NCBI GenBank assembly: GCA_004321885.1
Contig: SCQK01000014.1
Location: forward strand, 1-64,000
Source of the DNA: Patescibacteria group bacterium
GTDB lineage: Bacteria; Patescibacteriota; Patescibacteriia; Magasanikbacterales; GWA2-37-8
Reading direction: 5' to 3'
DNA: 64,000 nt
Shown piece by piece: positions 1-26,786 of the stretch. Below the pieces are notes generated by a model, which was given only the letters and a program-made list of their open reading frames with translations, was not told the origin of the DNA and did not search any database. How positions within the stretch are numbered: position 1 is the first letter of the stretch; every line of letters begins with the position of its first letter. The position numbers were made by a program, and so were the translations under genes.

Positions 1-118
1 CGGCACTTGCGAACGGCTAAATCTTTAATTGTAAGGAGCGCCTGCTTAATTCGTATGCGTAAAACCATTGCCTGTAAACCAAAAGTTTTTCAACCGAATT
101 AATTTAATCATCCCTTAT

Positions 119-985: not shown

Positions 986-1034
986 AAGTTATCCACAGGG
1001 TCATGCGATCCTGCGTGCCGGCCGCGAAAATTTG

Positions 1035-1178
1035 TGGTATAATAACATCAGCTTAATTCCACAACATTCAAGATGAGTGTGAAGCTTGTCTCACGCATCT
1101 ATAAATAGTTGGTTTGGAAATGCTTTTAGCGAAGCCAAAATTTTTTGTTAAAAATTTAATTTAAGGAGAAAAAAATAT
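1035..1178 (+). promoter_or_regulatory. Extended -10 promoter (TGgTATAAT at 1035..1043), ~130-nt leader and AAGGAG Shine-Dalgarno (1163..1168) for the giant surface-protein gene
   Basis: TGnTATAAT match; SD spaced 10 nt from the ATG at 1179. Confidence 0.5.
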
Positions 1179-4100: not shown

Positions 4101-7100
4101 CAGTTTGGAGCCGGCACTGTGACAGCCACTATTGCCTCGGTGAATACCAGCACCAATAAGATTACTCTTAATTTAGGCATTGTCGGCGGGCCCACTGGTC
4201 CGGGCGATCGTTTGTTCATTGATTTGCGCAAAATAATCAATCAGTCAACCCCGAACAATCCGTCCATTGGCGGAAGCAAACTTAGTATTAGTATTCTAAG
4301 AAGCAACGCGGTTCTGGCCAGCAAGACCACCATGGAATATTATGTCATGGCCGGCGGCACCAATACCTTAAATGTGGCCGTCATTGCCGGCAGCGCCACT
4401 TCTTCGCCGCAAAGCGGAGCAAACGGAACAGTTTATTTGCACGGAGGCGGCCCGGGCGGTCCGATGGATAAAACCCTGGTGCTCTTGAATGGTTCAATTT
4501 CCACTGTTGACGGGACTTCGGCAAATTCAATTTCTTTCACCAGCTTAAATAACGGCTGTTATTTCGTTGGCACTGACCCGTTCGTTAGTTTGGGCGGGGC
4601 TGATTACTTTGGCCAGGGCATGCCCGAACCAGTCTGCTTGAATGGCAGTGCATCAAGTACCAAATATATCTTGCTCTCTCCGGCCGCTGGTTCGGGCTCG
4701 GTGACAACCACGGTTAAATTGGCTGGCATCGCGAACTTTGGCGGCGCTGACATAGACATCTTTGCCGGGGGTCCGGGCCGATTTGTGGTCAAGACACTCA
4801 CGGCTTTGGGTGCGCCCGATGCCAATGGCTATAATTTGCAACTGCCGGCCAATGGCAACTGGTTTATCGGCGTGGGTCCGGCCATGCCCAAGGGCAGTTC
4901 CATGACCATGCCAAAGACATTGCCGGGCGTGCCTCCGGCTCCGATTGATGTGGCTGTGAGCGGCGTTGGTTCTGGTTCCCCCTCTGTTACCCGCAACAGC
5001 TTCATGCCTCTGCCTTCCAGCGTCAGCTTCAATGATACCTCGGATACGATTACCTTTACCTTTGCCACGGCTGATAAAATGGTAACCGGCACAGTGAAAG
5101 ACGGCGCTGGAAACGGGTTGGCGAATATTCAGGTATTCTTGCACCAGCAGGGGTTTGGCGCGCCAACATTTGGGCAGACCAATGCCTCGGGCACGTTTAC
5201 ATTGTCTGTGTCGGATTATGGCAGTTATGAAATCGGCGCGTTTAGAGATGGCATGCCGCCGGTGTTCAAGAGCCTGGAGATTAGAACCGACGGCGACGAT
5301 GCCGACAGCTTGGCTGACATCTATTATCAGGGCAAGTTGATTACCCAGGCCAACCCGCTGGTGCTGACGATGAAAAAAGCGGCCTATACTATTTCCGGCA
5401 AGGTGCTTGACGCGAGCAACAACAGCATAGACGGGGCTCCGGTGTTCGCGGTGGACGAGAACGGCAATAGCGCCATGGGCATGACAGCCTCGGACGGCAG
5501 CGGCTATTCCATATTTGTGGACGCCGGCACCTGGACAGTGCGCGCTGAATTGCCTCCGGATAAATCTGACACCTGCGGGTCTTTCTCCAAGAGTGTCGTA
5601 GTCACCAACGCCAGCAAGTCATTGCAAAACATCAGCCCGTCCACAGCCACCTGTATCACGCTTAGCGGCACGGCCAGCGCCGGCGGCACGGCCATTGCCA
5701 ACGCCCCTTTGTTTATAGAGGAATGGGACAACACCAACAGCCGGCCGGTGCAGGGCGGGGTAAAACGCGGCACGGCTACGGACAGCAATGGCGCCTATTC
5801 GGTGAAATTGGCCGGCAATACCACTTATCGCGTAGGCACCTGGAATCCGACTTATGGCGAGCTTAGCGCGGTCAAGGCGGTGCTGGCAATAGATGCCACG
5901 CAAAATTTGACTCTTTCTTCAACCAGCACGGTTACATTCAATTTCACCGGCGGTACCGCCAACATGAAGGCTTTTGTTGAATTGAAGAATGCCACTGATA
6001 AAATGAAAAGAATCGGCAAACAGGTAGAGTCGCTGGCCAGCGCCGCCACTGTTTCTGTTGAAGGCGGAGCAACCTACAATTACTTCGTTGACGTGTTCGG
6101 ATTTGGCAAGTTCACGGGTTCAGTGGCCGCCGGCGCTTCAGCCACGGTAGACGTTTCCACGGTCGGCTTTATCACGGTTTCCGGCACCATATACAGCGGC
6201 GCCGGCACGACCACGCCTGTGTCCGGAGCCCTCGTCACCTTTACCAATACCAGCACCGGCATAGTGCAAAGCGCGTCCACTAATGCCAGCGGCACGTATA
6301 GCGTGAAAATTAAAGCCGGTGATTACGCGGTAAGCGCCGGTCTAAATGAATATCTGCCCGGGCAAACCGCCGCGGTAGTTTCTTTCGCTACCACCACTCT
6401 GAATTATGATTTCGGCGGCGCGGCTCCGGACCAGGTGGCCATGGTCAGAGCAAATCGCACTATTGAAGGATTTATTTCCACTTCGGCCAGCGCTTCCACT
6501 TCCCAGGGATACGTCTGGGCCACTAACGCGTCGGGCACTGTCATCAGTGCGCCTATCAACGCGAATGGCACGTATTCATTGTCTGTCAACGACGGGTCCT
6601 GGACCGTAAAAGCGACCGCGCCCAGGCACGCGGAAACCACCAAGAGCGCCGCCGTAACAGTCTCGGGAAGTAATTCCACGGGCAACAACTTTACCCTTAC
6701 CGCTGATGCCACGCGCGTGCCCACCTCAACCTCGGGCATTGTGGCGGCCAATAGCGGCGGCTCGGTAAACGACAGCAACAATACCGGCATAAAAGTAGTA
6801 GCCGGCCCGGGCGTGCTTGAAGCCGGTTCTACCAATAATGTTACGGTTAGTCTGGAAAAAACATACAGCGCCCCGGCTTCCAGCGAATTCAACGCCTTAG
6901 GCAACGCGACTTACAGCATCACGGCCAAGACCACTTCCCAGGTTAAAGATTTGGTAGGCAATGCCGATATTCAGCTTGATTACACCAGCATGGTCGCGCA
7001 ATTGCCCACCGGAGTGACGGAAGCAGACCTGAAACTGATGTACTTGTCTTCTGAAACCGGCAAATACGTGTCAGTGGAAGGCGGCTATACCATAGACGCG

Positions 7101-8309
7101 ACCAACAACACCATTACAGGCCAGGTTGACCACCTCACGGACTTTGTTATCGCTTACTCGCCTCCGGCCGCGGCGGCCGCGCCCGCCTCGCCGGCTGCCT
7201 CGCCGACCACTGGTAGCGCGCCTACCAGCGACACTACTCCGCCGACCAATACTTCGGTGGTGATAGCGGGCGGCGCCACTACCACGGCCAGCGCCTCGGT
7301 TACCCTTACCCTGGCCGCCACTGGCGCCAGCCACATGATGGTATCCAATGTCGCGGCCTTTACCGGAGCGGCTTGGGAAACTTATGCCACTTCCAAGTCT
7401 TGGACCCTGGCCTCCGGAGCCGGCGTGAAAACCGTGTACGCGCGGTTCAAGGATTCATCCGGCAACATTTCCACGGCCGTATCTGATACTATACAACTGA
7501 CCGGCACGCAGACTACCCCGACTACGGATATTGTTGTGCCGGGCGTGGAAAATCTGGTAACGGGCGCTCCGACGGCCCCGGTAGTGGCGGTAGCGTATCC
7601 GGATTCGCTGGTGGAAATCACAAATATCCTCAAGGGTTCGTTTCAGCCAAGTGAAACGCTCAAGTTCGCCTACAAGTTCACCAACGAAAGCGCCAAGACC
7701 TTGAAGATAAAAATAGTGCGCCAGCTCTTAAATAGCAAGGGCAAAGTGATAAGCACTGCTTCCACGGTAAAGACCATCAAGGCCGGGCAGGCCTTTAATG
7801 CCGGCGTGAAACAAGCGCTGAACAAGAAATGGCCGGCCGGAGTCTATACCATGCGCGTGCGCGTGTACAACGCGGCCACGAACAAACTGCTGGAGCAGAA
7901 TAGCTTCCAGATTACGATTGAAAAGCTGAAAAAGAAGGTGTTCAAGCTTGGCGCGGCTCTTAGCGCTGATTCGGATGTCCAGTTTGACCAGGCCAGTCTG
8001 GCCAAAGTCAAATCCGGCGGCGGTTTGCCGGTGATTATCAAGGCCAAATACAGCTACACCAATAATACGGGCGCAAAGCATGTGGTGAAAATGGTGCGCG
8101 AGTTGGTGAATGGCAGTGGCAAAGTAGTTTCCACTTCCAAGGGCAAATGGACAATGGCTGTGGATGAAAAGTCCAGTCAATCCTTTACCCAGCCCGTGGC
8201 CGCCAATCTGGCGGCGGGCTCGTACGCAATGCGCGTTAAGGCCTATGATTGGACCAGCAACGAATTGTTGGCGGAAAATAGCTTGGGATTTGAGGTGGCG
8301 CTAAAGTAA
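1179..8309 (+). CDS. Giant (2376 aa) secreted/cell-surface protein with N-terminal signal/TM anchor, many Thr/Ser/Gly-rich Ig-like and carboxypeptidase-regulatory-like beta-sandwich modules, and a conserved C-terminal module shared with the next gene
   Basis: Single uninterrupted ORF; hydrophobic N-terminus (LLSLAAVVLGMGFYLAFFW); recurring segments such as VSGKITSGGANLAGATVFAGGY...SGDYTITGLPDNDGFDF typical of CarboxypepD_reg-like domains; AAGGAG Shine-Dalgarno 10 nt upstream; all antisense ORFs inside are short. Confidence 0.85.
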   Translation: MAKKIVRHLASKKRAYLLSLAAVVLGMGFYLAFFWSNGAKALSGVTLADTDTSSFGLDGRDFTVTWAPGATPTAYIYTQVYIVTSTAVLTSNTLQTACNGVCQPVSYFTQWSMNTVTLPQYRNTDSSNVAWTTTTQYVAWVFASTTNPVDSLMVSSSPVSTTYDVASDAMAPNIDHMSAHAATQSANALLYAFAFDEQTTASQFASTTDGGAEFFTLFYTPTNTAWVPANQATATSVAGDLFLFTVPSEAVPAAGGSFKYYLSARDRAGNTKFFCANPSAISAADCQSNAFIVNTVAAGSRQVSGKITSGGANLAGATVFAGGYAKAAVASDASGDYTITGLPDNDGFDFTATKAGYCKNIRFENIGATNKTGVDMSLNSGTCGGYYGGGGSGGGTPMVVFSGPPEGMNNVFLGETMRMGVNQPLDQATINSTNVYLTTDDGTTKIPGSVTFCSNNASPGCSSLFAMDNNVVLFVPTSPLSSSTFYTYVITEGVKSASGQSITGNRAGGGHKVSFTTSGGNYSGGGYTMGSSGQFMPPYVKSMSPAGGMSVAPNVKLILEFNKAMSASTVNTSNVILWNTTLNSAVTLSSVTLDNAESRFAVITPSSMPAGNDYELRVKGGVQDASGVGMRSPAEASQTAFSSFFSVAGSNDNTAPTTYPMTASGTTGVATNNLFEFGFNERLDTQTVNSTNITMSRGGTSVSIDAKYDGTKNSILIVPSSALAASTVYTITLSRIKDLANNQIATSTYTYTTGAADIAAPAVQNVRCDDYTCRISFSEPMNHATKVDSTWASSTLNHLNLSLTQGGADKIVTTTALSYDSVAKELVAEGVALTFGGANFALTITGVTDITGNIMPVVAWTGAVEDSRKTFGFGEMGMFGPPTTDMMGGGSIGGGEFKPMGFGSFTADQFAMGQADMAFPFNPTVSQDVNVFHVELNPNTALQNNDQVALTFPDGVNITNAAMDTLSPFFADMNQFGAGTVTATIASVNTSTNKITLNLGIVGGPTGPGDRLFIDLRKIINQSTPNNPSIGGSKLSISILRSNAVLASKTTMEYYVMAGGTNTLNVAVIAGSATSSPQSGANGTVYLHGGGPGGPMDKTLVLLNGSISTVDGTSANSISFTSLNNGCYFVGTDPFVSLGGADYFGQGMPEPVCLNGSASSTKYILLSPAAGSGSVTTTVKLAGIANFGGADIDIFAGGPGRFVVKTLTALGAPDANGYNLQLPANGNWFIGVGPAMPKGSSMTMPKTLPGVPPAPIDVAVSGVGSGSPSVTRNSFMPLPSSVSFNDTSDTITFTFATADKMVTGTVKDGAGNGLANIQVFLHQQGFGAPTFGQTNASGTFTLSVSDYGSYEIGAFRDGMPPVFKSLEIRTDGDDADSLADIYYQGKLITQANPLVLTMKKAAYTISGKVLDASNNSIDGAPVFAVDENGNSAMGMTASDGSGYSIFVDAGTWTVRAELPPDKSDTCGSFSKSVVVTNASKSLQNISPSTATCITLSGTASAGGTAIANAPLFIEEWDNTNSRPVQGGVKRGTATDSNGAYSVKLAGNTTYRVGTWNPTYGELSAVKAVLAIDATQNLTLSSTSTVTFNFTGGTANMKAFVELKNATDKMKRIGKQVESLASAATVSVEGGATYNYFVDVFGFGKFTGSVAAGASATVDVSTVGFITVSGTIYSGAGTTTPVSGALVTFTNTSTGIVQSASTNASGTYSVKIKAGDYAVSAGLNEYLPGQTAAVVSFATTTLNYDFGGAAPDQVAMVRANRTIEGFISTSASASTSQGYVWATNASGTVISAPINANGTYSLSVNDGSWTVKATAPRHAETTKSAAVTVSGSNSTGNNFTLTADATRVPTSTSGIVAANSGGSVNDSNNTGIKVVAGPGVLEAGSTNNVTVSLEKTYSAPASSEFNALGNATYSITAKTTSQVKDLVGNADIQLDYTSMVAQLPTGVTEADLKLMYLSSETGKYVSVEGGYTIDATNNTITGQVDHLTDFVIAYSPPAAAAAPASPAASPTTGSAPTSDTTPPTNTSVVIAGGATTTASASVTLTLAATGASHMMVSNVAAFTGAAWETYATSKSWTLASGAGVKTVYARFKDSSGNISTAVSDTIQLTGTQTTPTTDIVVPGVENLVTGAPTAPVVAVAYPDSLVEITNILKGSFQPSETLKFAYKFTNESAKTLKIKIVRQLLNSKGKVISTASTVKTIKAGQAFNAGVKQALNKKWPAGVYTMRVRVYNAATNKLLEQNSFQITIEKLKKKVFKLGAALSADSDVQFDQASLAKVKSGGGLPVIIKAKYSYTNNTGAKHVVKMVRELVNGSGKVVSTSKGKWTMAVDEKSSQSFTQPVAANLAAGSYAMRVKAYDWTSNELLAENSLGFEVALK

Positions 8310-8321
8310 TAGATTATAGGG

Positions 8322-8348
8322 CCCCGTTTAGAGCATTCTCTAACGGGG
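8322..8348 (+). terminator. Terminator-like hairpin after the giant gene (CCCCGTTTAGAG-catt-CTCTAACGGGG)
   Basis: 11-bp stem with one bulge, 13 nt after the stop; a sequence-related copy follows the next gene. Confidence 0.5.
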
Positions 8349-8353
8349 CAGGA

Positions 8354-8384
8354 ATTTCCATCTAAATTTTTTTTGGATGGAAAT
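8354..8384. promoter_or_regulatory. Perfect 8-bp inverted repeat TTTCCATC-(T-rich 12 nt)-GATGGAAA between the two surface-protein genes
   Basis: Palindrome read directly from the sequence; ~30 nt upstream of the 8415 ATG. Confidence 0.35.
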
Positions 8385-8414
8385 TTTTGCGGAAATTTAT
8401 TTATTAAATATAGT

Positions 8415-10847
8415 ATGGCAAAAAATATCTTCAAGTTTACGCTGTTTGTCGCGTTAGCGGTCGTGGTTTTACTCATAAGCGCGCAAAACGCGAGCGCGGC
8501 AGTAAACGCGCCGACCACGCCCACTTCCACCAGCAACATAACAGCCTCATCTATTCGGTATAATTGGACCTGGGGCGGAGGCGAGGAAGACCGGTGGGTT
8601 TTAGAGCGCTCAACTAATGGTAGCGACTGGACATTTGTCGCCACCACCACAGCGACCACCACGGCAAATTATACCTACACTGGATTAGCGACCAATACCC
8701 TTTATTATTTCAGAGTAGGGGCCGCTACCTCCACTTCCGTTACGTCAACTTATGCCACCTCTTCGGCTGTTTATACAGCTGTCGAGCAGGTGTCGGCTCC
8801 GACAATAGGAACCGCCAATACTTCTTCCCTACCCATAACTATCAATATTGGAGGCAACCCGGCGGCCACCACCTATGCCCTATACAACACCACCACGGCC
8901 AATTACCTTAACTCGGCCGGAGCAGTCACCACCACCCCGGTCTGGCAAACTACTTCCACCTGGGGCGCCAGCTTCGCGGCCACTGGTTTGAGTTTGAACA
9001 CTCTTTATCAATTCGCGGTTATTTCACGAAACGGAGACAATACCGAGGCTGCCACTTCCACGGTCAGCACGGCTAAGTATACTTTGGCCAGCCAAGCCAG
9101 CACTCCCACTATTGGCACTCCCACTGTTTCCACTTTGCCCGTCACCATCAATATCAACTCCAATCCGGCGGCCACTACCTATGCCTTGTATAATTTTACG
9201 TCAGGTAATTATTTAGCTTCCAACGGTTCATCCACTACCACTCCTGTTTGGCAAACCACTTCCACCTGGGGAGCGGCCTTTGCCGCTACCGGCCTTTCGG
9301 TCAACAGCGCTTACCAGTTTAATGTCATTGCCAGAAACGGAGACAGCGTGGAGGCCGCCACTTCCACGACCAGCACGGCTAAATACACCTTAGCCAACGC
9401 CGCTTCCGCTCCTACTATTGGCACAGCCGCCACTTCCAGCTTGCCTATCACTATCAATATCAACTCCAACCCGGCGGCCACCACCTATGCCCTATACAAC
9501 ACCACCACGGCCAATTACCTTAACTCGGCCGGAGCAGCCACCACCACTCCGGTTTGGCAGACCACTTCCACCTGGGGCGCCAGCTTCGCGGCCACTGGTT
9601 TAAGTTTGAACACTCTTTATCAATTCGCGGTTATTTCACGAAACGGAGACAATACCGAGGCTGCCACTTCCACGGTCAGCACGGCCAAGTATACTTTGGC
9701 TACCGCGCCGACAATGGGAGAAACCACCAACGTTGGCTCTTCAAACGCGACAATGAATTGGACCGGCAATGGCACCCAGTATTACGCTGAAAATACCAAT
9801 AACGGGGCGAATTCCGGATGGATAAGCGGCGTATCCAGCGCTTTCACCGGCTTGTCTTGTAATGTATCGTATATCTTTCGCGTAAAATCAAGAAATGGCG
9901 ACTCTACCGAAACCGACTGGAGCGCTTCTACCACAGTGTCTCTTACCAATTGCGGGGGCAGTTCGCCCGGTGGCGGCAGTCCCAGCCCCACTGTTACAAC
10001 GCCGGTTACCACCGTGGTAACTTCCACTATAGTCGCGCCAATTACAACGCCCGCTCCGGTTTCAGCGCCGGTTACGGCAACCACGCCGGTTTCGTCGGTG
10101 ATAACACCTGTTGCCACCGTGTCGGAAACCGCGGTACAAAATCCAGACTCCCTGGTGGTGATAGAAAATATCGCGAAGGTTTCATTCCAGCCCGGCGAGC
10201 CGCTTAAATTTACGTATAATTTTACCAACGACAATGACGCGTCCCTCAAAATCAAGATTGTCCGTCAGCTCTTAAGCAGCAAAGGCAAGGTCCTAAAGTC
10301 GGCTTCAGCGTTCAGAGTCTTGAAGTCCGGACAGACGGCGGTTGTTAAAGTGAACGAAACCATAGCCAAAAAACAAAGCCCGGGCAACTACACGGTGAAA
10401 GTGGCTGTCTACAACAGCCAGACCAGCAAACTGATTGACAGCAACAGTTTTGGCATCACAGTGGAAAAACTCAAGAAAAAGTTTTTGGTTCTGGGTGAAA
10501 ACATCTCCAGCGAGTACGCGGCCATTAAATTTGATTTGTCCGGCGTGAAAATCAGCGCTGGTCTGCCGGCAATGATAAAGGGAAAATACAACTACACCAA
10601 TCAGAGCGCGGACAGTCAGGCGATTAGAATGGTCAGAGAGTTGCAGGGTCCGGATGGCAAGGTTATCGCGAAAAAAATCGGCAAATGGACAATGACCGCG
10701 GGCGAGAGCTATTGGCAGGGCTTTACCCAGGCGGTGGGCGGCAATTTGGCCGCCGGTCCATATCTGATTTCCGTGAAAGCGTATGATTACGCCACGGGCG
10801 ACCTGTTGGAACAGAACAGTTTCGGCTTCAACGTGGTATTGAAATAG
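8415..10847 (+). CDS. Cell-surface protein with signal peptide, five fibronectin-type-III-like domains (three near-identical) and the same C-terminal module as the giant protein
   Basis: Signal peptide MAKNIFKFTLFVALAVVVLLISAQNASA; the W..Y..Y.FRV Fn3 pattern repeats every ~101 aa; C-terminal ~235 aa align with the C-terminus of the 1179..8309 product. The ATG at 8415 is preferred over the track start 8373. Confidence 0.8.
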   Translation: MAKNIFKFTLFVALAVVVLLISAQNASAAVNAPTTPTSTSNITASSIRYNWTWGGGEEDRWVLERSTNGSDWTFVATTTATTTANYTYTGLATNTLYYFRVGAATSTSVTSTYATSSAVYTAVEQVSAPTIGTANTSSLPITINIGGNPAATTYALYNTTTANYLNSAGAVTTTPVWQTTSTWGASFAATGLSLNTLYQFAVISRNGDNTEAATSTVSTAKYTLASQASTPTIGTPTVSTLPVTININSNPAATTYALYNFTSGNYLASNGSSTTTPVWQTTSTWGAAFAATGLSVNSAYQFNVIARNGDSVEAATSTTSTAKYTLANAASAPTIGTAATSSLPITININSNPAATTYALYNTTTANYLNSAGAATTTPVWQTTSTWGASFAATGLSLNTLYQFAVISRNGDNTEAATSTVSTAKYTLATAPTMGETTNVGSSNATMNWTGNGTQYYAENTNNGANSGWISGVSSAFTGLSCNVSYIFRVKSRNGDSTETDWSASTTVSLTNCGGSSPGGGSPSPTVTTPVTTVVTSTIVAPITTPAPVSAPVTATTPVSSVITPVATVSETAVQNPDSLVVIENIAKVSFQPGEPLKFTYNFTNDNDASLKIKIVRQLLSSKGKVLKSASAFRVLKSGQTAVVKVNETIAKKQSPGNYTVKVAVYNSQTSKLIDSNSFGITVEKLKKKFLVLGENISSEYAAIKFDLSGVKISAGLPAMIKGKYNYTNQSADSQAIRMVRELQGPDGKVIAKKIGKWTMTAGESYWQGFTQAVGGNLAAGPYLISVKAYDYATGDLLEQNSFGFNVVLK
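8793..9707 (+). repeat. Three tandem ~303-bp coding repeats (Fn3-like units); units 1 and 3 are nearly identical at nucleotide level
   Basis: Compare 8860..9090 with 9470..9700: only a few substitutions over ~230 nt. Confidence 0.85.
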
Positions 10848-10871
10848 GATAGGCCGTCAACGTTGAACTTG

Positions 10872-10908
10872 CCCCGTTAGAGAGCTTCTCTAACTGGGCT
10901 TGTTTTTT
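10872..10908 (+). terminator. Rho-independent terminator (CCCCGTTAGAGA-gctt-CTCTAACTGGG followed by TTGTTTTTT)
   Basis: Stem-loop plus U-tract; the stem sequence is homologous to the hairpin at 8322..8348. Confidence 0.65.
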
Positions 10909-10987
10909 GCCGGAAATTTGGGTATAATTTTAATACGCAAGCAATTTAACTTCCTAATTCGCTATTCTTAATTCTTTATTCTCGTAT

Positions 10988-11983
10988 ATGAACATCGCAA
11001 TCAACGGTTTTGGCCGCATTGGGCGGCAGGCGTTTAAGGTGGCTGTAACAAAGAAAAACATAAAGGTGGTCGCGCTCAATGATTTAACCGACACCAAGAC
11101 CATGGCGCATTTGTTAAAATACGACACGTCTTACGGCTCGTTTGATTTGCCCCTTTCCTTTGATGAGAAAAATTTAATCGTGAAAGGCAAAAAGATTCCG
11201 GTGCTGGCGGAAAAAGACCCGAGCAAACTGCCCTGGGGTGAAATGAAAGTGGCCGTGGTTTTGGAGTGCACGGGCCGGTTTACCAAAAAAGAAGACGCGG
11301 CTTTGCATTTGCAAGCGGGCGCGAAAAAAGTGATTATTTCGGCGCCGGCCAAGGGCGGCGGAGTGCCGACTTATGTGCGCGGGGTAAATTGCGGCCAGGT
11401 GGGCAAAGAGAAAGAAGCGATTATCAACAACGCCTCATGCACCACCAATTGCATCGCGCCGGTGATGGCGGTGCTGGATGAAAAGTTCGGCATAGAAAAG
11501 GCGTTTATGAGCACGGCGCACGGCTACACGGCCGACCAGAATCTGCAAGACGGCCCGCACAAGGATTTGCGCCGGGCGCGCGCGGCCGCCTGCAACATCA
11601 TTCCTACTACCACGGGCGCGGCCAAGGCCGTGGGCGAGGTGATTCCCAAATTAAAGGGTATTTTTGACGGGGTGGCTTTCCGGGTGCCGGTGCCGACTGT
11701 TTCTTTGTCCGATATTACCGCTGTCTTGAAAAAGAACGCGACTAAAGAAGAGGTGAATAAAGCGATTTTGGCGGCCGCGGGTACTTCGCGCTTCAAGGGT
11801 ATTTTGGCCGCCACCAGCGAGCCGCTGGTGTCTGCGGATTTTATCGGCAACACGCATTCCTCGTTTGTGGATTTGAGCTTGACCAGCGTGGTGGGAGGGA
11901 ATATGGTGAAAGTGGTGGCTTGGTACGACAATGAAGTTGGCTACGCCAATCGCCTGGTGGAACTGGCCGAGTTATTCGCGTAA
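10988..11983 (+). CDS. gap: Glyceraldehyde-3-phosphate dehydrogenase
   Basis: NGFGRIGR N-terminal NAD-binding motif and the active-site ASCTTNCIAPV. Confidence 0.9.
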   Translation: MNIAINGFGRIGRQAFKVAVTKKNIKVVALNDLTDTKTMAHLLKYDTSYGSFDLPLSFDEKNLIVKGKKIPVLAEKDPSKLPWGEMKVAVVLECTGRFTKKEDAALHLQAGAKKVIISAPAKGGGVPTYVRGVNCGQVGKEKEAIINNASCTTNCIAPVMAVLDEKFGIEKAFMSTAHGYTADQNLQDGPHKDLRRARAAACNIIPTTTGAAKAVGEVIPKLKGIFDGVAFRVPVPTVSLSDITAVLKKNATKEEVNKAILAAAGTSRFKGILAATSEPLVSADFIGNTHSSFVDLSLTSVVGGNMVKVVAWYDNEVGYANRLVELAELFA

Positions 11984-11987
11984 AATT

Positions 11988-12021
11988 TCTCTCCCCCTTT
12001 TTAAGGAGGAGACGAAGAGGG
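11988..12021. repeat. C-run/G-run palindromic intergenic element (family A), copy after gap
   Basis: TCTCTCCCCC-tttttaa-GGAGGAGACGAAGAGGG; the G arm provides AGGAGG before the next ATG. Confidence 0.45.
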
Positions 12022-12027
12022 TAAACA

Positions 12028-12618
12028 ATGCTTATGCTAAAAATTAAGAATGATGAACTGATAAAAGAATTAGTCGGTTCCGAGGCGGAATTTCCCAAAT
12101 ACGCTACCCAACTGATCAATCTTGCCAATCAAAACGCCCAGGGTACGAGACCAAAAGTTGTTGGTCAATTGTCCGAGTTGATTAATGAGTGCCCTAAGAA
12201 GACGTATGAGGGTTGGCGCGACTGGTACCTCGCCAAACATCCGGACGCGATCAAAAATGCCGTGGTAAAGATAAATCAGATGATGGAGAATTTTAAGTTG
12301 GCCATCAAATCCATCAATAAAAAAATGATTGAAAAATGGGTTAGGGATTTAGTACTGGAAAAAACTTATGTGGGGTTGAGATTCCAGGAAGCCATATTAA
12401 AAAAAGTGGCGCAAATCAAAAAAATAAGCTATCAATTATCAACCGCCCAAGAAGAATCCTGCGGGATAGACGGATATGTCGGCGGTGAAGCCGTCTCTGT
12501 TAAGCCTATGTCGTACAAGACAAAGGCCGCTTTGGGAGAAACATTAGGAGGAAAAATAATTTTTTACGAAAAGAAAAAAGACGGCTTAAACATAGACGCG
12601 GATTTGATATTAAAATAA
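12028..12618 (+). CDS. Candidate type II restriction endonuclease, partner of the adjacent methyltransferase
   Basis: 196-aa ORF ending 4 nt before the MTase start and co-oriented with it; no recognisable housekeeping domain. Assignment is by operon context only. Confidence 0.4.
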   Translation: MLMLKIKNDELIKELVGSEAEFPKYATQLINLANQNAQGTRPKVVGQLSELINECPKKTYEGWRDWYLAKHPDAIKNAVVKINQMMENFKLAIKSINKKMIEKWVRDLVLEKTYVGLRFQEAILKKVAQIKKISYQLSTAQEESCGIDGYVGGEAVSVKPMSYKTKAALGETLGGKIIFYEKKKDGLNIDADLILK

Positions 12619-12622
12619 TAAC

Positions 12623-13576
12623 ATGGGCACGAATCATAGAATAATTATTGGCGATTCGCGGCAGATGTCGGAGCTTAGCGACAAATCTGTCCATCTTATT
12701 ATAACCTCACCGCCTTATTGGCAGATAAAGGATTATGGCAGTGCCGATCAGATAGGTTTTAACGATACCTACGAGGAATACATAAAAAATTTGAATCAGG
12801 TGTGGTCCGAATGCGCGCGCGTTTTGCATGATGGTTGCCGCATGGTGATAAATATCGGCGATCAATTTGCCAGGGCCGTTACATACGGGAGGTATAAAGT
12901 GATACCCATTCGCGAAGAGATAATCAAATTTTGCGAATCAATCGGCTTTGATTATATGGGCGCGATTATTTGGCAGAAAGTGACGACGATGCACACTACC
13001 GGCGGCGCCTCAATTATGGGTTCTTTTCCGTACCCGAGGAACGGCATGATAGCGATAGATTATGAGTTCATATTGCTTTTCAAAAAGCTGGGCAAGGCGC
13101 CCAATAATGTGACTGCGGATATAAAAAAGAAATCAGAGATGACGAAAGAAGAATGGAGAGAATACTTTACCGGACATTGGAATTTTGTTGGCGAGAAGCA
13201 AAACGGCGGGCATATCGCGATGTTTCCCGAAGAGCTACCCAAGCGCATTATAAAAATGTTTAGTTTTTTTGGGGAAACGGTGCTTGATCCGTTTTTGGGC
13301 AGTGGCACGACAACAAAGACAGCCCGGGAGTTAGGCCGCAATTCTGTTGGGTACGAAATCAATAATGATTTTTTGTCGGTTATTAAGGAAAAAGTCGGCA
13401 TTAATAAAATGTCGCTCTTCAATCGCGATACGAAGTATGACGTCGTAAATCAGCAGAAAAATTACGGGCTGAAACAAAAAGGTATTGAAAAAAAAGATTC
13501 CATAATTAAAAATAGAGTTAACGATCCGAATTTTTGGAAATTATTAAAAGAGAAAAGATGCAAGGTCGTCACTTAA
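12623..13576 (+). CDS. DNA methyltransferase, beta-class amino-MTase (N4-cytosine or N6-adenine; SPPY catalytic motif)
   Basis: Motif IV LIITSPPYW near the N-terminus and motif I FLGSGTT near the C-terminus (circular permutation typical of the N6_N4_Mtase family). Confidence 0.85.
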   Translation: MGTNHRIIIGDSRQMSELSDKSVHLIITSPPYWQIKDYGSADQIGFNDTYEEYIKNLNQVWSECARVLHDGCRMVINIGDQFARAVTYGRYKVIPIREEIIKFCESIGFDYMGAIIWQKVTTMHTTGGASIMGSFPYPRNGMIAIDYEFILLFKKLGKAPNNVTADIKKKSEMTKEEWREYFTGHWNFVGEKQNGGHIAMFPEELPKRIIKMFSFFGETVLDPFLGSGTTTKTARELGRNSVGYEINNDFLSVIKEKVGINKMSLFNRDTKYDVVNQQKNYGLKQKGIEKKDSIIKNRVNDPNFWKLLKEKRCKVVT

Positions 13577-13582
13577 AGAATT

Positions 13583-14023
13583 ATGCAAAACTGTTGTAAC
13601 ATTTGGGAAGTTTTTGACGAGGAAAATAATCTGATAAAAGAATATCAGCATTGGAAGTTGTTGATAAAAAATAGGGGACCGAGGACTTTGGGAAATTCTG
13701 TCGCTGTATTAAAAAGACACATTTTAAGATTTTCCGATATTACAGATGAAGAAATGTTGGATTTCGCCAAACTCGTGCGTGAAACAGAAAACGCTTTGAA
13801 AAAATCCTTCAATTACGACAAAATTCATTGGCTGATGTACATGACTAAAGACCCGCACGTTCATTTTCACATTTTTCCAAGATACAATGAGGACAAAAAT
13901 TTTGGTGGTATCCAGTGGATGGATGGACTGCGAGAGCCAGACCCTCTAAAAATGGAACAAAAAAATCTGTCTCAAGAACAATTAAACGAAATAAAAGAGG
14001 AAATAAAAAAGAATTTCTTTTAA
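13583..14023 (+). CDS. HIT-family (Fhit-like) nucleotide hydrolase
   Basis: Histidine triad HVHFHIFPR matches the HxHxHxx motif of Fhit/Hint. Confidence 0.55.
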   Translation: MQNCCNIWEVFDEENNLIKEYQHWKLLIKNRGPRTLGNSVAVLKRHILRFSDITDEEMLDFAKLVRETENALKKSFNYDKIHWLMYMTKDPHVHFHIFPRYNEDKNFGGIQWMDGLREPDPLKMEQKNLSQEQLNEIKEEIKKNFF

Positions 14024-14026
14024 TAT

Positions 14027-14062
14027 GCCCCCCTTTAGGGGGAGGACAGAGGAGGGGGTTTT
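14027..14062. repeat. Family A C/G palindromic element
   Basis: CCCCCCTTTAGGGGGAGGACAGAGGAGGGGGTTTT. Confidence 0.5.
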
Positions 14063-14068
14063 CACGAT

Positions 14069-14419
14069 ATGTCTGAAATAAAAATAATTGACACAAAAAT
14101 TTCAATAGCCGAATTGAAAGAAGCCGCCGAACAGGTTTTTGGTGATTTTGTGAAAGTGGTGGTAGATTTGGAAAGAGTAAAAATGGCGATTGGCGGAGAA
14201 CTGCATGCCGACGAGGAGGCCGTACTTTTAGGGAACGGCTCCAAACAGGAAAATTTGTGGGGGATAAATTTGTATCCGGCTAATTTCGGCGGCGAAGATT
14301 TTATTGAGTTTGATTCAATGGTAAACATTAAGCCGGGCCTGGGCAATTTTTCGCGAGCAATAAAGAGCGAAGAAGTCAGAAAGAAAATAAAAGAGGCGGT
14401 GGCGAAGCTGGTTGGATAA
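14069..14419 (+). CDS. Hypothetical small protein
   Basis: 116-aa ORF in the co-oriented gene array, flanked on both sides by C/G palindromic repeat elements. Confidence 0.5.
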   Translation: MSEIKIIDTKISIAELKEAAEQVFGDFVKVVVDLERVKMAIGGELHADEEAVLLGNGSKQENLWGINLYPANFGGEDFIEFDSMVNIKPGLGNFSRAIKSEEVRKKIKEAVAKLVG

Positions 14420-14420
14420 A

Positions 14421-14458
14421 TCCCCCTCTCCTTTATTAAGGGGAGGGCGGGGGAGGGG
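14421..14458. repeat. Family A C/G palindromic element
   Basis: TCCCCCTCTCC-tttattaa-GGGGAGGGCGGGGGAGGGG. Confidence 0.55.
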
Positions 14459-14468
14459 TAGTTAGTTT

Positions 14469-14807
14469 ATGGCTGAATACATCCACCAAAATTTATCTGT
14501 CGGCCGATGGTTTGAACTTAGTTTATGTGAACAATTGGGCAATGTGGGAAGCGAAGTCGGACGCGCGGCCAATTGGCGACGGAAAAATCAGGGCGAGCAA
14601 TCGGAAAAGGCGATAGAGCGGGGGATGGAATTGCTGGATTTGACGATTGCGGACGCGCGTTGGGCGGGCGCGCGCAGAAAAGAGCTATGTCGCGCGCGAG
14701 AATTGATTAAAGACGTGTTTTACGGCGACAATCAATATCACGATTCGCCGGAAGCGCTGGAAAAATATTTTTTCCAGTTCGCGTTGGCGGCGAGAAGAAA
14801 CAATTAA
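14469..14807 (+). CDS. Hypothetical small protein, possibly an all-alpha NTP-pyrophosphohydrolase (MazG-like) fold
   Basis: Segments EQLGNVGSEVGRAA and MELLDLTIADARW loosely resemble the paired EExxE/ELGD helices of MazG-like proteins; the match is weak. Confidence 0.35.
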   Translation: MAEYIHQNLSVGRWFELSLCEQLGNVGSEVGRAANWRRKNQGEQSEKAIERGMELLDLTIADARWAGARRKELCRARELIKDVFYGDNQYHDSPEALEKYFFQFALAARRNN

Positions 14808-14826
14808 ATTGCGGCTTAAAAGCAGT

Positions 14827-16674
14827 ATGACAGAAGGAACAACTCTCAACCGCGCTATCAAAAATCAAGAAATTTGGAAGTTTAATGTTGAAAAAGATGG
14901 TCTCTATTTGATTACAATTAACGCGCGATGCAAAAATTGGCTTCAGAGTTTTCGGCGTCTATTCAACGACGATGATTTGGCGGTTCAAATTGATGATCAT
15001 TTGCTTGCTGAATTGGCGGGGAAAAAACGTGAATTCAATCAGCCGGGCGCTTGGAATGGGAACGACTTGAAAAACAATTTCAAAACCGTTCTGATGTTGC
15101 TCCCCTTAAAATCCGGCACCCACGAAATCAAATTTTGGACAGACGGGGCGCCATACGTGGAAACGCCGAAGATAAAAGAAATCAAATTAACGCGAGAAAT
15201 ATTGATTGACGCGCCGGATGCTAAAGCAGCGGACTTAATCATTAAAAATATTTTAGCGGAAAATGTAGAAGTTATCGGCAAGGGAGCGACAAAAAAGATT
15301 GAAGTGGTCTACGCGCAAGATAAAATTTTCGCCTCTCCCTTAAAGAGAATAAAAGATCAACCGATTTCTTCCGTTAAAATCCGGCTCAAAAAAGAGGAAT
15401 TAAAATACAAAGTCGGAAAAATCAAATTATACAAAGATTTAGTTCTGTCAGATGAGGTAAATTTACGCGCAAGGCCCAATGATGGTTCAGAAATAATCGC
15501 GCGCATTCCTGATGGGGAAGAAGTAAATATTATTAATGAACGGGCGATGGAAGACGACCGTCAAAAATCCTATATAGCTTCATATTCTTATATTTGGCAT
15601 GAAGTTCTTTGGCAAGACAAATTCGGACAAGAGAAGAGCGGGTATGTGCTTTCTTCTTTTGTGGAAATACAGGGACAAGAGAGACAGACGATAATAAATC
15701 TCATAACAACCAAAAGTCGCGAACAAGGCGTGGACCCAAATATAATGTTGGCGATCGCTGGGCAAGAGTCGCGCTTCAAGCCATTTGCTGTGCCATCGAC
15801 GGGGCCGAAGGGCGTTTTTCAACTATCAGGCGATACAGCCGAGCGGGTGGGTGTGAAAGATCAATTTAATTTTTTTCAAAACGTGGAAGGTGGCGTAAAA
15901 TATTACAAAATAATTGAAAATCAATTCGCTGGTCGCGGGAATGTTTTGGAAAGAAGATTGTTGGCTTGGCATGACGGGCCAAGCAAGATACCCGAAAGAG
16001 GAAAGGTTGATCTAAGTAAGTTCTCTGCCGAGTCGCAAAAATTTGTGAAAAATGTTTTGCAAAACATTAAACGGAAGGACTGGTTCCATCTCTCTTCTTC
16101 CGTTATAGCGATTTTATTCGCTATCGCCGGTTCTTTTGTGGGTTATTTACAACACGATATATCAAAATTTGAGGAAAGCGCGGCTATATCTGTCGCCCAG
16201 GCGGCCGAAAGCGACAATTTTAGAAAATTTATTTTTCACGATGAAGCCGTGCCTTTGATTGTCGTCAAAAGCATCGGTACATTTCGTCCATTTCCGAATT
16301 TTCGCGCTGATTTTTATTATAGAAATAGCTGGGGCATGTCGTTTCATGAAACTTTAGACGGCTATTTAGACGATGCCGGATGGACATATTTGGGAAGACA
16401 AAAACTAATTTTTTGGGTGAGGCGCGAAGAGGGTCATTATCTGCCTACTTCATTTTTTATGTTTGATAATAGCACGGAAACTTTTAAAATGATAAAGTTT
16501 ATCGATCGTGATGGTAGAATTTACAATGATGTCAGCGCGCCTTATGATATTTCAACAGAAGGCGACGAGAGCTTTCTGAGCAAAGAAATTCGGCAAACTT
16601 GGGGTGACGTAGGCAAACCCGAAGTGAAGGAGTATAAGTATGATTGGGAGAAGAATGTGTTTAATGAGATATAG
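14827..16674 (+). CDS. Membrane-anchored lytic transglycosylase (SLT domain) with an unrecognised N-terminal domain, an SH3b-like segment and a C-terminal domain beyond one TM helix
   Basis: SLT catalytic region AIAGQESRFKPFAVPSTGPKGVFQLS; TM segment WFHLSSSVIAILFAIAGSFVGYL; N-terminal ~130 aa are shared with the 44340..46337 paralog. The track start 14809 is TTG; the first ATG is 14827. Confidence 0.7.
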   Translation: MTEGTTLNRAIKNQEIWKFNVEKDGLYLITINARCKNWLQSFRRLFNDDDLAVQIDDHLLAELAGKKREFNQPGAWNGNDLKNNFKTVLMLLPLKSGTHEIKFWTDGAPYVETPKIKEIKLTREILIDAPDAKAADLIIKNILAENVEVIGKGATKKIEVVYAQDKIFASPLKRIKDQPISSVKIRLKKEELKYKVGKIKLYKDLVLSDEVNLRARPNDGSEIIARIPDGEEVNIINERAMEDDRQKSYIASYSYIWHEVLWQDKFGQEKSGYVLSSFVEIQGQERQTIINLITTKSREQGVDPNIMLAIAGQESRFKPFAVPSTGPKGVFQLSGDTAERVGVKDQFNFFQNVEGGVKYYKIIENQFAGRGNVLERRLLAWHDGPSKIPERGKVDLSKFSAESQKFVKNVLQNIKRKDWFHLSSSVIAILFAIAGSFVGYLQHDISKFEESAAISVAQAAESDNFRKFIFHDEAVPLIVVKSIGTFRPFPNFRADFYYRNSWGMSFHETLDGYLDDAGWTYLGRQKLIFWVRREEGHYLPTSFFMFDNSTETFKMIKFIDRDGRIYNDVSAPYDISTEGDESFLSKEIRQTWGDVGKPEVKEYKYDWEKNVFNEI

Positions 16675-16676
16675 GT

Positions 16677-17075
16677 ATGTCCAAATTCGCGGAAAAATTT
16701 TGGGGGGTGATGTTGAGCAAAAGCGTGTTGATTATCCTACAAATTTTATTGTGGATAGTAGCATTTGTTTTAATTTATTCAAGGATCTCTGGTGAATTAA
16801 CGCAACCCCTCGTATCTTTGCAAGTTTTTGTAATTTTTGTTTATTTATATCCGCTTAGTATTTTAGTATTCTTCAGCATGTTCAGTGCTGATTTTTCGCA
16901 GGCATCTGTTCTTCTTTTACTGGCTTATTATTTTTTGATGGTCTATTCCTTAACGAAGATAAATAAAGAGACTAGGTACAAAAAATATTTTGCATTTGCT
17001 TATTTACTATTTATGGTTTTGAGTTTTATAGGAGTAATTATATCTTATTTATCTCTCAATTTTGTTAGTATTTAA
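16677..17075 (+). CDS. Small polytopic membrane protein, hypothetical
   Basis: Four hydrophobic helices; start overlaps the upstream stop by GTATG. Confidence 0.5.
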   Translation: MSKFAEKFWGVMLSKSVLIILQILLWIVAFVLIYSRISGELTQPLVSLQVFVIFVYLYPLSILVFFSMFSADFSQASVLLLLAYYFLMVYSLTKINKETRYKKYFAFAYLLFMVLSFIGVIISYLSLNFVSI

Positions 17076-17078
17076 AAT

Positions 17079-18413
17079 ATGAGAATTTTAACAACGGAAA
17101 CGACAAAGAAGGTGGGGGAGGAAGTAATGTTAAAGGGCTGGGTGAACGCGCGCCGAGACATGGGCAAGGTGACGTTTTTGGATTTGCGCGACCGCAGCGG
17201 CGTGGTGCAAATTGTTTGCTTTCCGGCGGACCTGGACGAGCAGTCGCTCGCCATCGCCAAAGAAGCGCGCGGTGAATGGGTGCTGGAAATCCGCGGTATT
17301 GTGAACAAGCGCGGGGTCAAACAAATCAATCCTAATCTCGCCACCGGCGAAGTAGAAGTGCTGGCTAAGGAAATACAGGTTTTGGCCAAAGCCGAGGCCC
17401 TGCCCTTGGATTTGGCGGAAGAAAAAATCGGTTTGGACGTGCATCTGGATAATCTGCCTTTAACTTTACGCGCGCCAAAGTGGAGAGCCCTATTCAAAAT
17501 CCAATCCGAAATCGTGGAAGCCTTTCGCGCGTTTTTGCGCGGACAAGGGTTTACCGAATTTCAATGCCCCAAAATCGTGGGCGGCTCCACCGAGGGCGGC
17601 GCCAATGTTTTTAACATTGATTACTTCGGCCACAAAGCGTTTCTGGCCCAAAGCCCGCAATTTTACAAACAAATAATGACGGGCGTGTTTGAGCGCGTGT
17701 TCACGGTCGGTAATGTTTATCGCGCCGAGGAGCACGCCACCACGCGCCACATCAACGAATACACCAGCATGGACTTGGAGATGGCCATGATTAAAGACCA
17801 TACAGATGTGATGAAATTGGAAACGGAATTTTTGCGCTATCTGCTTGAGTATTTGAAAAAGACCGTATCCGAAGAATTGAAAGCGTGTAATTACGAAGAG
17901 CCGCTCTTACCCAAAGAGATTCCGGTTTTTACTTTGCGCGAAGTACAGAAACTTATCAAAAAACACACCAAGGTTGACCACATCGCCGAGCCGGATTTGG
18001 AACCGAACGAAGAAAGATGGATTTGCGAGTACGCCAAAAAAGAATTGGCTTCGGATTTTGTTTTTGTCACGCATTATCCGACCGCCAAGCGCCCGATGTA
18101 CACCTATCCGGATGAAAAAGACCCGGAAACGACCAAAAGTTTTGATTTGCTTTTTAAGGGCGTGGAAATCACCACCGGCGGCCAGCGCATTCACGATTAC
18201 CAGCAGCTTTTGGGCAACATCAAAAAGTGGGGGCTGAAGCCGGAAAATTTTTCTTTCTATTTGGAAGCGTTCAAATACGGTATGCCGCCCGAGGGCGGGC
18301 TGGCTATCGGGCTGGAACGGCTCACCGCGCGATTACTGGGGGTAGAAAATGTAAAAGAGGCGACATTGTTTCCCAGAGATTTGAACAGAATTGACTTACC
18401 GTTATCGTCGTAA
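17079..18413 (+). CDS. aspS: Aspartyl-tRNA synthetase, short archaeal/eukaryotic-type form
   Basis: N-terminal OB-fold GWVNARRDMGKVTFLDLRDRSG and class II core motifs (FKGVEITTGGQRIHDY, GMPPEGGLAIGLERL); ~440 aa length. Confidence 0.85.
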   Translation: MRILTTETTKKVGEEVMLKGWVNARRDMGKVTFLDLRDRSGVVQIVCFPADLDEQSLAIAKEARGEWVLEIRGIVNKRGVKQINPNLATGEVEVLAKEIQVLAKAEALPLDLAEEKIGLDVHLDNLPLTLRAPKWRALFKIQSEIVEAFRAFLRGQGFTEFQCPKIVGGSTEGGANVFNIDYFGHKAFLAQSPQFYKQIMTGVFERVFTVGNVYRAEEHATTRHINEYTSMDLEMAMIKDHTDVMKLETEFLRYLLEYLKKTVSEELKACNYEEPLLPKEIPVFTLREVQKLIKKHTKVDHIAEPDLEPNEERWICEYAKKELASDFVFVTHYPTAKRPMYTYPDEKDPETTKSFDLLFKGVEITTGGQRIHDYQQLLGNIKKWGLKPENFSFYLEAFKYGMPPEGGLAIGLERLTARLLGVENVKEATLFPRDLNRIDLPLSS

Positions 18414-18447
18414 TTGGAAATTGGTCATTGGAAATTTTAAATGTATG
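18414..18447 (+). promoter_or_regulatory. Family C motif TTGGAAATTGGTCATTGGAAATTTTAAATGTATG (direct repeats of TTGGAAATT flanking GGTCA), ending in ATGTATGTTT
   Basis: Shares the TTGGTCATTG core and the ATGTATGTTT start context with 43187..43228. Confidence 0.4.
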
Positions 18448-18729
18448 TTTTCCTCCTTGCAAAGAAATATTTTGAGAGAATGTTGCGGCGCCCCGAAGGG
18501 GGCCCTTCGGGCCAAGGGGGCGAAAGTTGACCGCAAAGTTTTTGACAAGCTCCGGCCGGTAAAAATTGTCACTAAAAGTTTGGAGCGGCTGATAGACAGG
18601 GGAGACCTGGTGGGCTATGGCGTGCGCACGCCGAAGAAATGGTTTATTAAAGAAGTGAAAGCGACCAGGCAGGGCTTGAAGGACTGGGTCAAGTTCATGG
18701 CCAGCAGACAAAAGAGATTGCCGTTGTGA
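18445..18729 (+). CDS. Hypothetical small basic protein (uncertain)
   Basis: Lys/Arg-rich ORF between aspS and scpA; the first ATG is 18445 and the track start 18391 is TTG. It overlaps GC hairpins at 18481..18520, so it may be non-coding. Confidence 0.3.
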   Translation: MFSSLQRNILRECCGAPKGALRAKGAKVDRKVFDKLRPVKIVTKSLERLIDRGDLVGYGVRTPKKWFIKEVKATRQGLKDWVKFMASRQKRLPL

Positions 18730-18731
18730 TT

Positions 18732-19460
18732 ATGCTGGAATTTAGACTGCCCCGACGTAAAGTCGGGGTCCCGACCGAAGCGTCGGGAGAAAAATTTGAA
18801 GGGCCGCTGGATTTGCTTTTGCAGTTGATTGAACAGGAAGAAATGAACATCAGCGAAGTGTCGCTGTCAAAAATTACCGAACAATTTTTTGTTTATCTGG
18901 ACAAGCTGGAGCAGGGGCGCTCGGAAGAATTGGCGGATTTTTTGGTTATCGGCGCCAAGCTGGTTTACTTGAAATCCAGACAGCTCTTGCCGGTTTTGCA
19001 TCCGGAAGAAGACGACGGCCCGTCCTTGGCCGACCAGCTCAAAATGTACAAGCAGTATGTTGAAGCGAGCAAGAAAATAAACGAGCTGTGGGAAGCGGGT
19101 AAAGTATCTTATGGGCGAATGGAGCCGCCGGTAAAGGCCCAAGGGTTTACGCTTCCGGCCAATGGCTGGCAAGACGACCTGTATCACGCGATGCATGAAC
19201 TGGTAAAGCGCTTGAAGCCCATAGACCCTTTGCCGGCCGCTACCATTGATTACAACGTGTCGGTAAAGCAGAAGATAGACAGCCTACGTTCGCTGTTAAA
19301 AAAAGGAAACGGCGTAAATTTTGTCCGGCTTTTGTCCGACGCCAAGAACAAAACCGAAGTGATAGTAAGTTTTTTGGCCGTGCTGGAATTAGTGAAAGAA
19401 AAATGGGCAAGCGTGAAGCAAAAAAACGCGTTTGGGGAAATGGTGGTTGAAAAAGTATGA
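18732..19460 (+). CDS. scpA: Segregation and condensation protein A (kleisin)
   Basis: LDLLLQLIEQEEMNISEVSLSKITEQF is the characteristic ScpA N-terminus; a GTG start at 18726 is also possible. Confidence 0.8.
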   Translation: MLEFRLPRRKVGVPTEASGEKFEGPLDLLLQLIEQEEMNISEVSLSKITEQFFVYLDKLEQGRSEELADFLVIGAKLVYLKSRQLLPVLHPEEDDGPSLADQLKMYKQYVEASKKINELWEAGKVSYGRMEPPVKAQGFTLPANGWQDDLYHAMHELVKRLKPIDPLPAATIDYNVSVKQKIDSLRSLLKKGNGVNFVRLLSDAKNKTEVIVSFLAVLELVKEKWASVKQKNAFGEMVVEKV

Positions 19461-19990
19461 TTGCAAAAATAGAAACAATTTTATTTGTCGCCTCCAAGCC
19501 GCTGGCGGTAAAAAAAATCGCCAAGGTTTTGGGCGCCAAAGAAGCGGAGATAAAGCGGGCGCTGGAGGAGCTTTGTTCAAAATACAATCATCCGGCGTCC
19601 GGCATAGCCATTTTGCGCAACAACGACGAATGGCAGATGGTTTCCAATCCGGATAATCGCGAAGCGGCCGAGGAATTTTTAAAAGCCGAGGTCTCGGGCG
19701 AGCTGACGCGGCCGCAGTTGGAGACCCTTACCGTCATCACTTACTGCGGGCCCATCACCAAGCCCGAGCTGGAGCAAATCAGGGGAGTCAACTGCGGCAT
19801 AATTTTGCGCAACCTGATGATACGCGGACTGGTGAAAGAAACCGAAGACAGCGCGAATCTCTTGCCGTCTTATGAAGTAACAATGGACTATTTGCGGCAT
19901 TTGGGCGTGGTTAGCGCGGCCGAGTTGCCGGACTATGAAATTTTACACAAGCATGAAAATGTAAGCGGAATTTTGAATCAAGAAATGTGA
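19457..19990 (+). CDS. scpB: Segregation and condensation protein B
   Basis: IETILFVASKPL...GPITKPELEQIRGVN winged-helix pair; ATGA overlap with scpA. Confidence 0.8.
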   Translation: MIAKIETILFVASKPLAVKKIAKVLGAKEAEIKRALEELCSKYNHPASGIAILRNNDEWQMVSNPDNREAAEEFLKAEVSGELTRPQLETLTVITYCGPITKPELEQIRGVNCGIILRNLMIRGLVKETEDSANLLPSYEVTMDYLRHLGVVSAAELPDYEILHKHENVSGILNQEM

Positions 19991-20979: not shown

Positions 20980-21210
20980 GGAGAAAAGTGATATAATATA
21001 TTGGAGATTTGCTATACAAATTTATGCTCAAATCCGTCCAGCTCAAACTGGCAAAGATAAAATACAGCGGCGATTCTATCGGAGATGACATTAGCGCGGC
21101 TGCATGACTATTATTGAAGTCAAGCGCTGGATGGAAATTTATGACGCTCTTATCAAAGCGCGCAAGGGCGATTTTATGAGCGTCGGCGTGCTGGAAATTG
21201 TGGATTAAGT

Positions 21211-21738: not shown

Positions 21739-21741
21739 AAT

Positions 21742-22920: not shown

Positions 22921-22926
22921 TATTTT

Positions 22927-23667: not shown

Positions 23668-23670
23668 TTT

Positions 23671-24669: not shown

Positions 24670-24685
24670 ATTAATTTTTAACTAT

Positions 24686-25522: not shown

Positions 25523-25526
25523 AAAT

Positions 25527-26774: not shown

Positions 26775-26786
26775 TTTAAAAAATTC

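Follow-up and report, generated by a model that had tools for sequence, protein, structure and literature searches.

Do two neighboring genes in a 64,000-nucleotide stretch of a Patescibacteria genome (hereafter the window; GenBank assembly GCA_004321885.1, contig SCQK01000014.1, positions 1 to 64,000) form a working restriction-modification (R-M) system and, if so, at which DNA site would it act? The original prediction read them as a small restriction endonuclease, vaguely reminiscent of the CTAG-cutting enzymes MjaI and MthZI, followed after 4 nucleotides (nt) by a methyltransferase whose motif IV is SPPY and which would probably modify the N4 position of cytosine. Both open reading frames (ORFs) are present on the + strand with the gap that was described (Table 1), and both are real genes judged by their matches to the Pfam families RE_MjaI (PF09568, E=2.3e-62) and N6_N4_Mtase (PF01555, E=5.9e-44). 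Taken together, the evidence presented here makes it very probable that the two genes constitute a complete and apparently functional Type IIP R-M cassette of the MjaI/MthZI kind, which would combine a nuclease specific for CTAG with a methylase that generates N4-methylcytosine (m4C) in the same site, i.e. Cm4TAG.

For the nuclease, the link to MjaI and MthZI drawn in the original prediction proved right. The 196-amino-acid protein matches RE_MjaI from end to end (210.1 bits with a cut-off of 22.7; model positions 1-164 of 164), placing it in a nuclease family rather than in a non-nuclease family, and it also matches the PADLOC model REase_II PDLC03519 (E=6e-67). In a tblastn search of plasmids, exactly three records were found, all of them copies of the Methanothermobacter plasmid pFZ1 (NC_001337.1), in which the matching gene carries the annotation MjaI-family restriction endonuclease. 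The enzyme encoded by pFZ1 is MthZI, a C^TAG cutter, and activity at CTAG has been demonstrated experimentally for MjaI (MJ0984) (PMC2615612, PMC11033074). MthZI belongs to the same Pfam family as the window nuclease and is 53% identical to it over residues 9-186 (91% of the length), and the most conserved block of the family, the N-terminal FPxYxTQxxNLANQNAQGTRPxVVGQ, is near-identical in the two proteins. MjaI of Methanocaldococcus jannaschii, encoded next to M.MjaI (MJ0985), is the type member of PF09568; it is absent both from the 73 genome loci described below, for which the search patterns were too specific for the Candidate Phyla Radiation (CPR), and from the best 120 relatives of MthZI. 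Homologues of the window nuclease form more than 5,000 clusters at 90% identity, mostly from CPR, the closest database match being 79% identical.

To judge intactness, we aligned 59 divergent nucleases of the family, including MthZI and members from Poribacteria and DPANN archaea, and scored 56 positions taken from those conserved at ≥95%. The window nuclease deviates at four of these near-invariant positions, all of them conservatively (F112Y, I156V, T160S, and I171L). The conserved set includes the residues of the predicted catalytic core listed in Table 1 (the last group as S155-x-K157), and the window protein keeps every one of them, as would befit a PD-(D/E)XK fold whose catalytic residues are intact. 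Being full length and with its catalytic residues kept, the nuclease looks intact, and its identity to MthZI, together with the avoidance of CTAG described below, makes CTAG the site that it most likely recognizes and cuts.

The second gene encodes a methylase that matches PF01555 with 151 bits and the PADLOC model MTase_II PDLC03259 with 455 bits (E=4.7e-137). Motif IV preceding motif I is the order found in the beta class, and because the window methylase has this order we assign it to that class. Its motif IV is TSPPY, in agreement with the SPPY motif claimed originally; as in characterized m4C enzymes, the first place of SPPY is taken by serine rather than by aspartate or asparagine. The other two methylases encoded in the window have DPPY instead. 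None of the 104 positions conserved within its clade is altered in the protein, nor is any of the 53 conserved across both clades of partner methylases (types A and B, see below), and the protein looks intact. Among solved structures, the nearest is that of TTHA0409 from Thermus thermophilus HB8 (PDB 2zie; E=5e-50, residues 5-258), a putative beta-class DNA methylase that likewise has TSPPY as motif IV (TSPPYW); the literature found reports no recognition site for TTHA0409 from which specificity might be deduced.

SPPY is the active-site motif of the structurally characterized N4-cytosine enzyme N4CMT (PMC10406627) and has also been described as the m4C motif of the CTAG methylases, M.MjaI, M.MthZI, HVO_0794, and LomA all carrying it (PMC5867850); we take it as a predictor of m4C rather than as proof. 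M.MjaI is listed as an m4C enzyme at CTAG (PMC11033074, PMC5867850), 4mC at CTAG is likewise the product described for M.MthZI (PMC5867850), deletion of HVO_0794 (Zim) abolishes Cm4TAG in Haloferax volcanii (PMC5867850), and LomA of Leptospira, which is 45% identical to M.MthZI, generates 4mC at CTAG (PMC7708080). Thus, the characterized CTAG methylases in the literature found all make m4C. From the nuclease partner and motif IV, we infer that the window methylase makes Cm4TAG. The N4-cytosine guess is in this way strengthened by the SPPY motif and by the characterized CTAG methylases, with the caveat that the target base is predicted from the partner and motif IV.

The pairing of the two proteins is conserved far beyond this genome. 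With one genome scanned for each species, we obtained 73 loci with relatives of the window nuclease, from Patescibacteria, DPANN archaea, Poribacteria, Nitrospirota, and others, and a beta-class methylase directly adjoins the nuclease in 67 of them. When pFZ1 is counted as the 68th pair, SPPY is present in 65 of the 68 partner methylases, which are of two types. Type A partners occur at 39 loci (SPPY in 37) and are 61-75% identical to the window methylase, with the nuclease gene preceding the methylase gene in the same direction in 33 and the methylase preceding the nuclease in six. In the type A cassettes of CPR (e.g. loci L002-L027), the nuclease and then the methylase are co-directional and overlap or lie a few nt apart, as in the window, with identities to the window proteins of 61-69% for the nuclease (genome loci) and 66-75% for the methylase, which has SPPY; their genomic context differs from that of the window at every locus, and no experimentally characterized representative was found in the literature. 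Type B partners (28 genome loci and pFZ1; SPPY in 28 of 29) are ~50% identical to M.MthZI and ~31% identical to the window methylase, and they are arranged convergently with the nuclease in archaea and upstream of it in Poribacteria. PADLOC separates the two clades, assigning type B partners and M.MthZI to PDLC03283 and the window methylase to PDLC03259. In seven of seven viral contigs (IMG/VR; L076-L082), a distant nuclease (39% identity) is followed by a methylase of a third SPPY lineage. Altogether, MjaI-family nucleases (L001-L082) are accompanied by at least three lineages of SPPY beta-class methylases in three gene arrangements, and the constant feature across loci is an MjaI-family nuclease with an SPPY beta-class methylase. 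Methylase type is not mirrored in the nuclease tree, in which nucleases of Pacearchaeota with type B partners stand beside the CPR clade. The existence of at least three SPPY lineages and a nuclease tree that does not follow them therefore suggest an exchange of partners among lineages, i.e. replacement of the methylase within the MjaI family. We also note two loci, L056 (Desulfobacterales, 4788-5564) and L038 (2309-2908), where the nuclease is full length and the flanks that were retrieved show no beta-class methylase.

The window sequence itself bears traces of CTAG avoidance, and the depletion that the original prediction proposed to look for was found. CTAG occurs seven times in the window compared with 84 ± 10 expected from dinucleotide-preserving shuffles (second-order Markov observed/expected (O/E) ratio 0.15), and the 1,549-bp cassette contains none, compared with 5.7 predicted from composition. 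Several observations nevertheless weigh against the reading as a functional CTAG/Cm4TAG system, some of them touching on the site and the modified base and others on function. The depletion of CTAG is real but non-specific: TCGA (14 observed, O/E 0.09) and GATC (43 observed, O/E 0.25) join CTAG as the three tetranucleotides with the lowest O/E of all 256 in the window, and across 32 type A cassettes with their flanks CTAG has an O/E of 0.40-0.46 without being the one most avoided word, ACGT, GTAC, CATG, and GGCC being about as depleted in the cassettes. It is in type B loci alone that CTAG clearly ranks as the most avoided word (O/E 0.11-0.12). Because control palindromes are equally depleted in the window and in type A loci, we treat CTAG depletion as supportive evidence only; the avoidance of TCGA and GATC may stem from the other R-M loci or from R-M pressure in the past or in the community. 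Moreover, the window methylase falls, by sequence comparison, outside the M.MthZI clade and is not an orthologue of M.MthZI: the two are 32.6% identical over residues 1-259, characterized members of the M.MthZI/Zim (HVO_0794)/LomA clade share ~45% identity or more, and the window methylase scores 180 bits with PDLC03283 compared with 496-630 bits for M.MthZI and type B partners. In the literature found, there is no characterized member of its PDLC03259-type clade, and metagenomic methylome papers report CTAG motifs in other phyla and nothing for CPR or for this clade. Finally, the adenine within CTAG is also a possible target for an amino-methyltransferase.

These points would be explained if the CPR clade, with a gene pair of this type, recognized something different from plain CTAG, or if the methylase made CTm6AG instead of m4C. 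We regard this as very unlikely given the close relationship of the nuclease to MthZI, to which other CPR members are 57-59% identical, its near-identity with MthZI in the N-terminal block, the retention of SPPY in all three partner lineages whereas the other two window methylases have DPPY, and the uniform m4C product of the CTAG methylases cited above. That the whole PDLC03259-type lineage and the CPR nuclease clade have a specificity or modified base other than Cm4TAG similarly appears unlikely. In a weaker form of this idea, the CPR cassettes would have independently recruited a CTAG m4C methylase, which would exemplify how partners in Type II systems can be replaced as modules. We therefore retain Cm4TAG as the predicted product and suggest that the window methylase, which like M.MthZI is a beta-class SPPY amino-methyltransferase, probably works like the enzymes of the M.MthZI clade though it is not a clade member.

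With respect to function, a truncated nuclease frame lies beside a full-length methylase at five loci (L026, L030, L032, L051, and L073, with the nuclease near position 5000), which could be due to nuclease decay or to assembly errors; if the former, decay of the nuclease occurs in this family. In addition, when cloned in Escherichia coli with the native start codons kept, MjaI and MthZI were poorly expressed or inactive (PMC2615612). By analogy, the window nuclease might be silent or inactive, effectively leaving an orphan methylase, or the cassette might mainly be a selfish addiction module. We consider a cassette without a function in defense very unlikely: the window nuclease is full length, starts with ATG whereas MthZI starts with GTG (PMC2615612), has conservative substitutions only, and keeps its catalytic residues, while the tight packing of the two genes and the lack of a terminator inside the pair fit expression. 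On balance, a cassette that is active in vivo is what we predict.

The local organization of the genes is summarized in Table 1. The start of the nuclease is ambiguous between the ATG at 12028 (196 amino acids) and the ATG at 12034 (194 amino acids), the latter being the NCBI start (TAN32625.1) and agreeing with the N-termini of homologues; the Shine-Dalgarno-like GAGGG lies 6 nt 5' of the former and 12 nt 5' of the latter. The TAA stop codon of the nuclease ends at 12618 and the ATG of the methylase is at 12623, leaving a gap of exactly 4 nt in which no separate Shine-Dalgarno sequence for the methylase is visible, so that translational coupling of the two genes is likely. The nuclease-first order and the absence of a controller protein also point to coupling: there is no extra ORF or gene for a helix-turn-helix (HTH) regulator between the flanking GAPDH and HIT genes. 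The GAPDH gene on the 5' side (Pfam Gp_dh_N and Gp_dh_C) ends at 11983, 44 nt from the nuclease, and the HIT-family gene on the 3' side begins 6 nt past the methylase stop codon. Because all four genes are co-directional and closely packed, co-transcription of nuclease and methylase is a reasonable assumption, and no terminator-like site was found on the + strand inside the pair. Promoter-like matches in the 3' end of the nuclease gene were dismissed as weak (9/12 matches in AT-rich DNA).

Table 1 Features of the nuclease-methylase cassette and its 5' flank (positions in the window)
Feature	Position	Strand	Remarks
GAGGG, Shine-Dalgarno-like	12017..12021	+	Read from the sequence; putative function
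MjaI-family Type II restriction endonuclease gene	12028..12618	+	ATG start, 196 amino acids; predicted specificity CTAG
Predicted PD-(D/E)XK catalytic core of the nuclease	12388..12504	+	E119, E140/E141, D146, S155-V-K157 (194-amino-acid numbering)
Spacer TAAC, 4 nt	12619..12622	+	Between nuclease stop and methylase ATG
Beta-class N6/N4 DNA methyltransferase gene	12623..13576	+	ATG start, 317 amino acids; GenBank TAN32626.1
Methylase motif IV TSPPY, catalytic	12704..12718	+	From translation; residues 28-32
Methylase motif I DPFLGSGTT, S-adenosylmethionine binding	13286..13312	+	From translation; residues 222-230; conserved across clades A and B

How did the cassette come to lie between these neighbors? 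The flanking HIT, DUF5674, and SLT genes of the window recur in none of the 73 genome loci, and GAPDH recurs once, in another position. Because the flanking genes are not common to the loci, it is the two-gene unit alone that travels, as a horizontally mobile cassette, and we rejected conserved synteny with vertical inheritance on the same grounds. The GC content of the cassette (~0.40-0.44, compared with 0.52-0.61 for the GAPDH gene) is consistent with horizontal acquisition. The MthZI system of pFZ1 and the window pair are both compact two-gene units in a mobile background; the pFZ1 genes, however, are convergent with overlapping 3' ends, whereas the window genes are co-directional with the nuclease first.

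We suggest a model whereby a horizontally mobile unit was inserted between the GAPDH and HIT-family genes of this Patescibacteria (CPR) genome. In this model, the nuclease, a small PD-(D/E)XK enzyme, would recognize the palindrome CTAG and cut incoming DNA that is unmethylated, most likely generating C^TAG ends by analogy with MthZI. The methylase would be translated from the same mRNA, 4 nt further 3', and would turn the C of host CTAG sites into N4-methylcytosine, a modification that would protect the chromosome from the nuclease.

Three R-M loci had been proposed within the 64 kb, and this count is broadly right, with the qualification that locus 2 pairs a DPPY methylase with an unclassified ORF and that the methylase of locus 3 is only partial. 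Locus 2 (22927..24669) comprises a 246-amino-acid ORF and, 3 nt later, a beta-class DPPY methylase (PF01555, E=2e-33). The ORF has no match in Pfam, PADLOC, or NCBIfam, and its only plasmid homologues (41% identity) are in two Thermus plasmids; in T. thermophilus pTthSNM1-7d, the homologue is a 'hypothetical protein' encoded directly 5' of a DNA methylase gene. Because this homologue also adjoins a methylase, locus 2 is probably a true R-M pair whose nuclease is unclassified. At locus 3 (31472..33156), the N-terminal 129 amino acids of a DPPY methylase remain (PF01555 positions 1-57 of 221), followed by a HARE-HTH protein (240 amino acids) and a 213-amino-acid ORF with a sub-threshold HincII-like match (E=0.005), which is consistent with a decayed R-M locus. 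This density had been called unusual for a small genome, a view that we do not share: defense systems are reportedly denser in CPR bacteria than in other phyla (PMC12259885), and three R-M loci in 64 kb are therefore typical of the lineage.

Stretches of low GC content (0.29-0.43 versus a background of ~0.50-0.55) at 12000..17100, 23000..25000, 31000..33000, 35000..38000, and 45000..46000 coincide with the three R-M loci and the HIT gene, and also cover two SLT+SH3 paralogues (14809..16674 and 44340..46337) and the genes for TyrRS and ArgRS (35896..38822). The + strand carries almost all long ORFs, and the cumulative GC skew climbs monotonically across the window (1..64000), consistent with a single replichore and strong co-orientation of genes.

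The MjaI/MthZI-type family has been characterized since 1992, and the pair described here is a textbook Type II R-M cassette. Both exact proteins are already in GenBank, as 'MjaI family restriction endonuclease' (TAN32625.1) and 'site-specific DNA-methyltransferase' (TAN32626.1), both encoded on a 159,463-bp contig of a Patescibacteria group bacterium. The assignment is correct but ordinary, with little significance beyond correct annotation, and the exchange of methylase partners within the MjaI family is the only mildly new observation. In practical terms, anyone transforming or culturing this lineage of Patescibacteria should expect restriction at CTAG and may wish to pre-methylate DNA or remove CTAG sites, and the predicted Cm4TAG could aid methylation-based binning or host linking in metagenomes. 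Finally, the very large number of homologue clusters in CPR shows that this cassette is among the common defense modules of the radiation.
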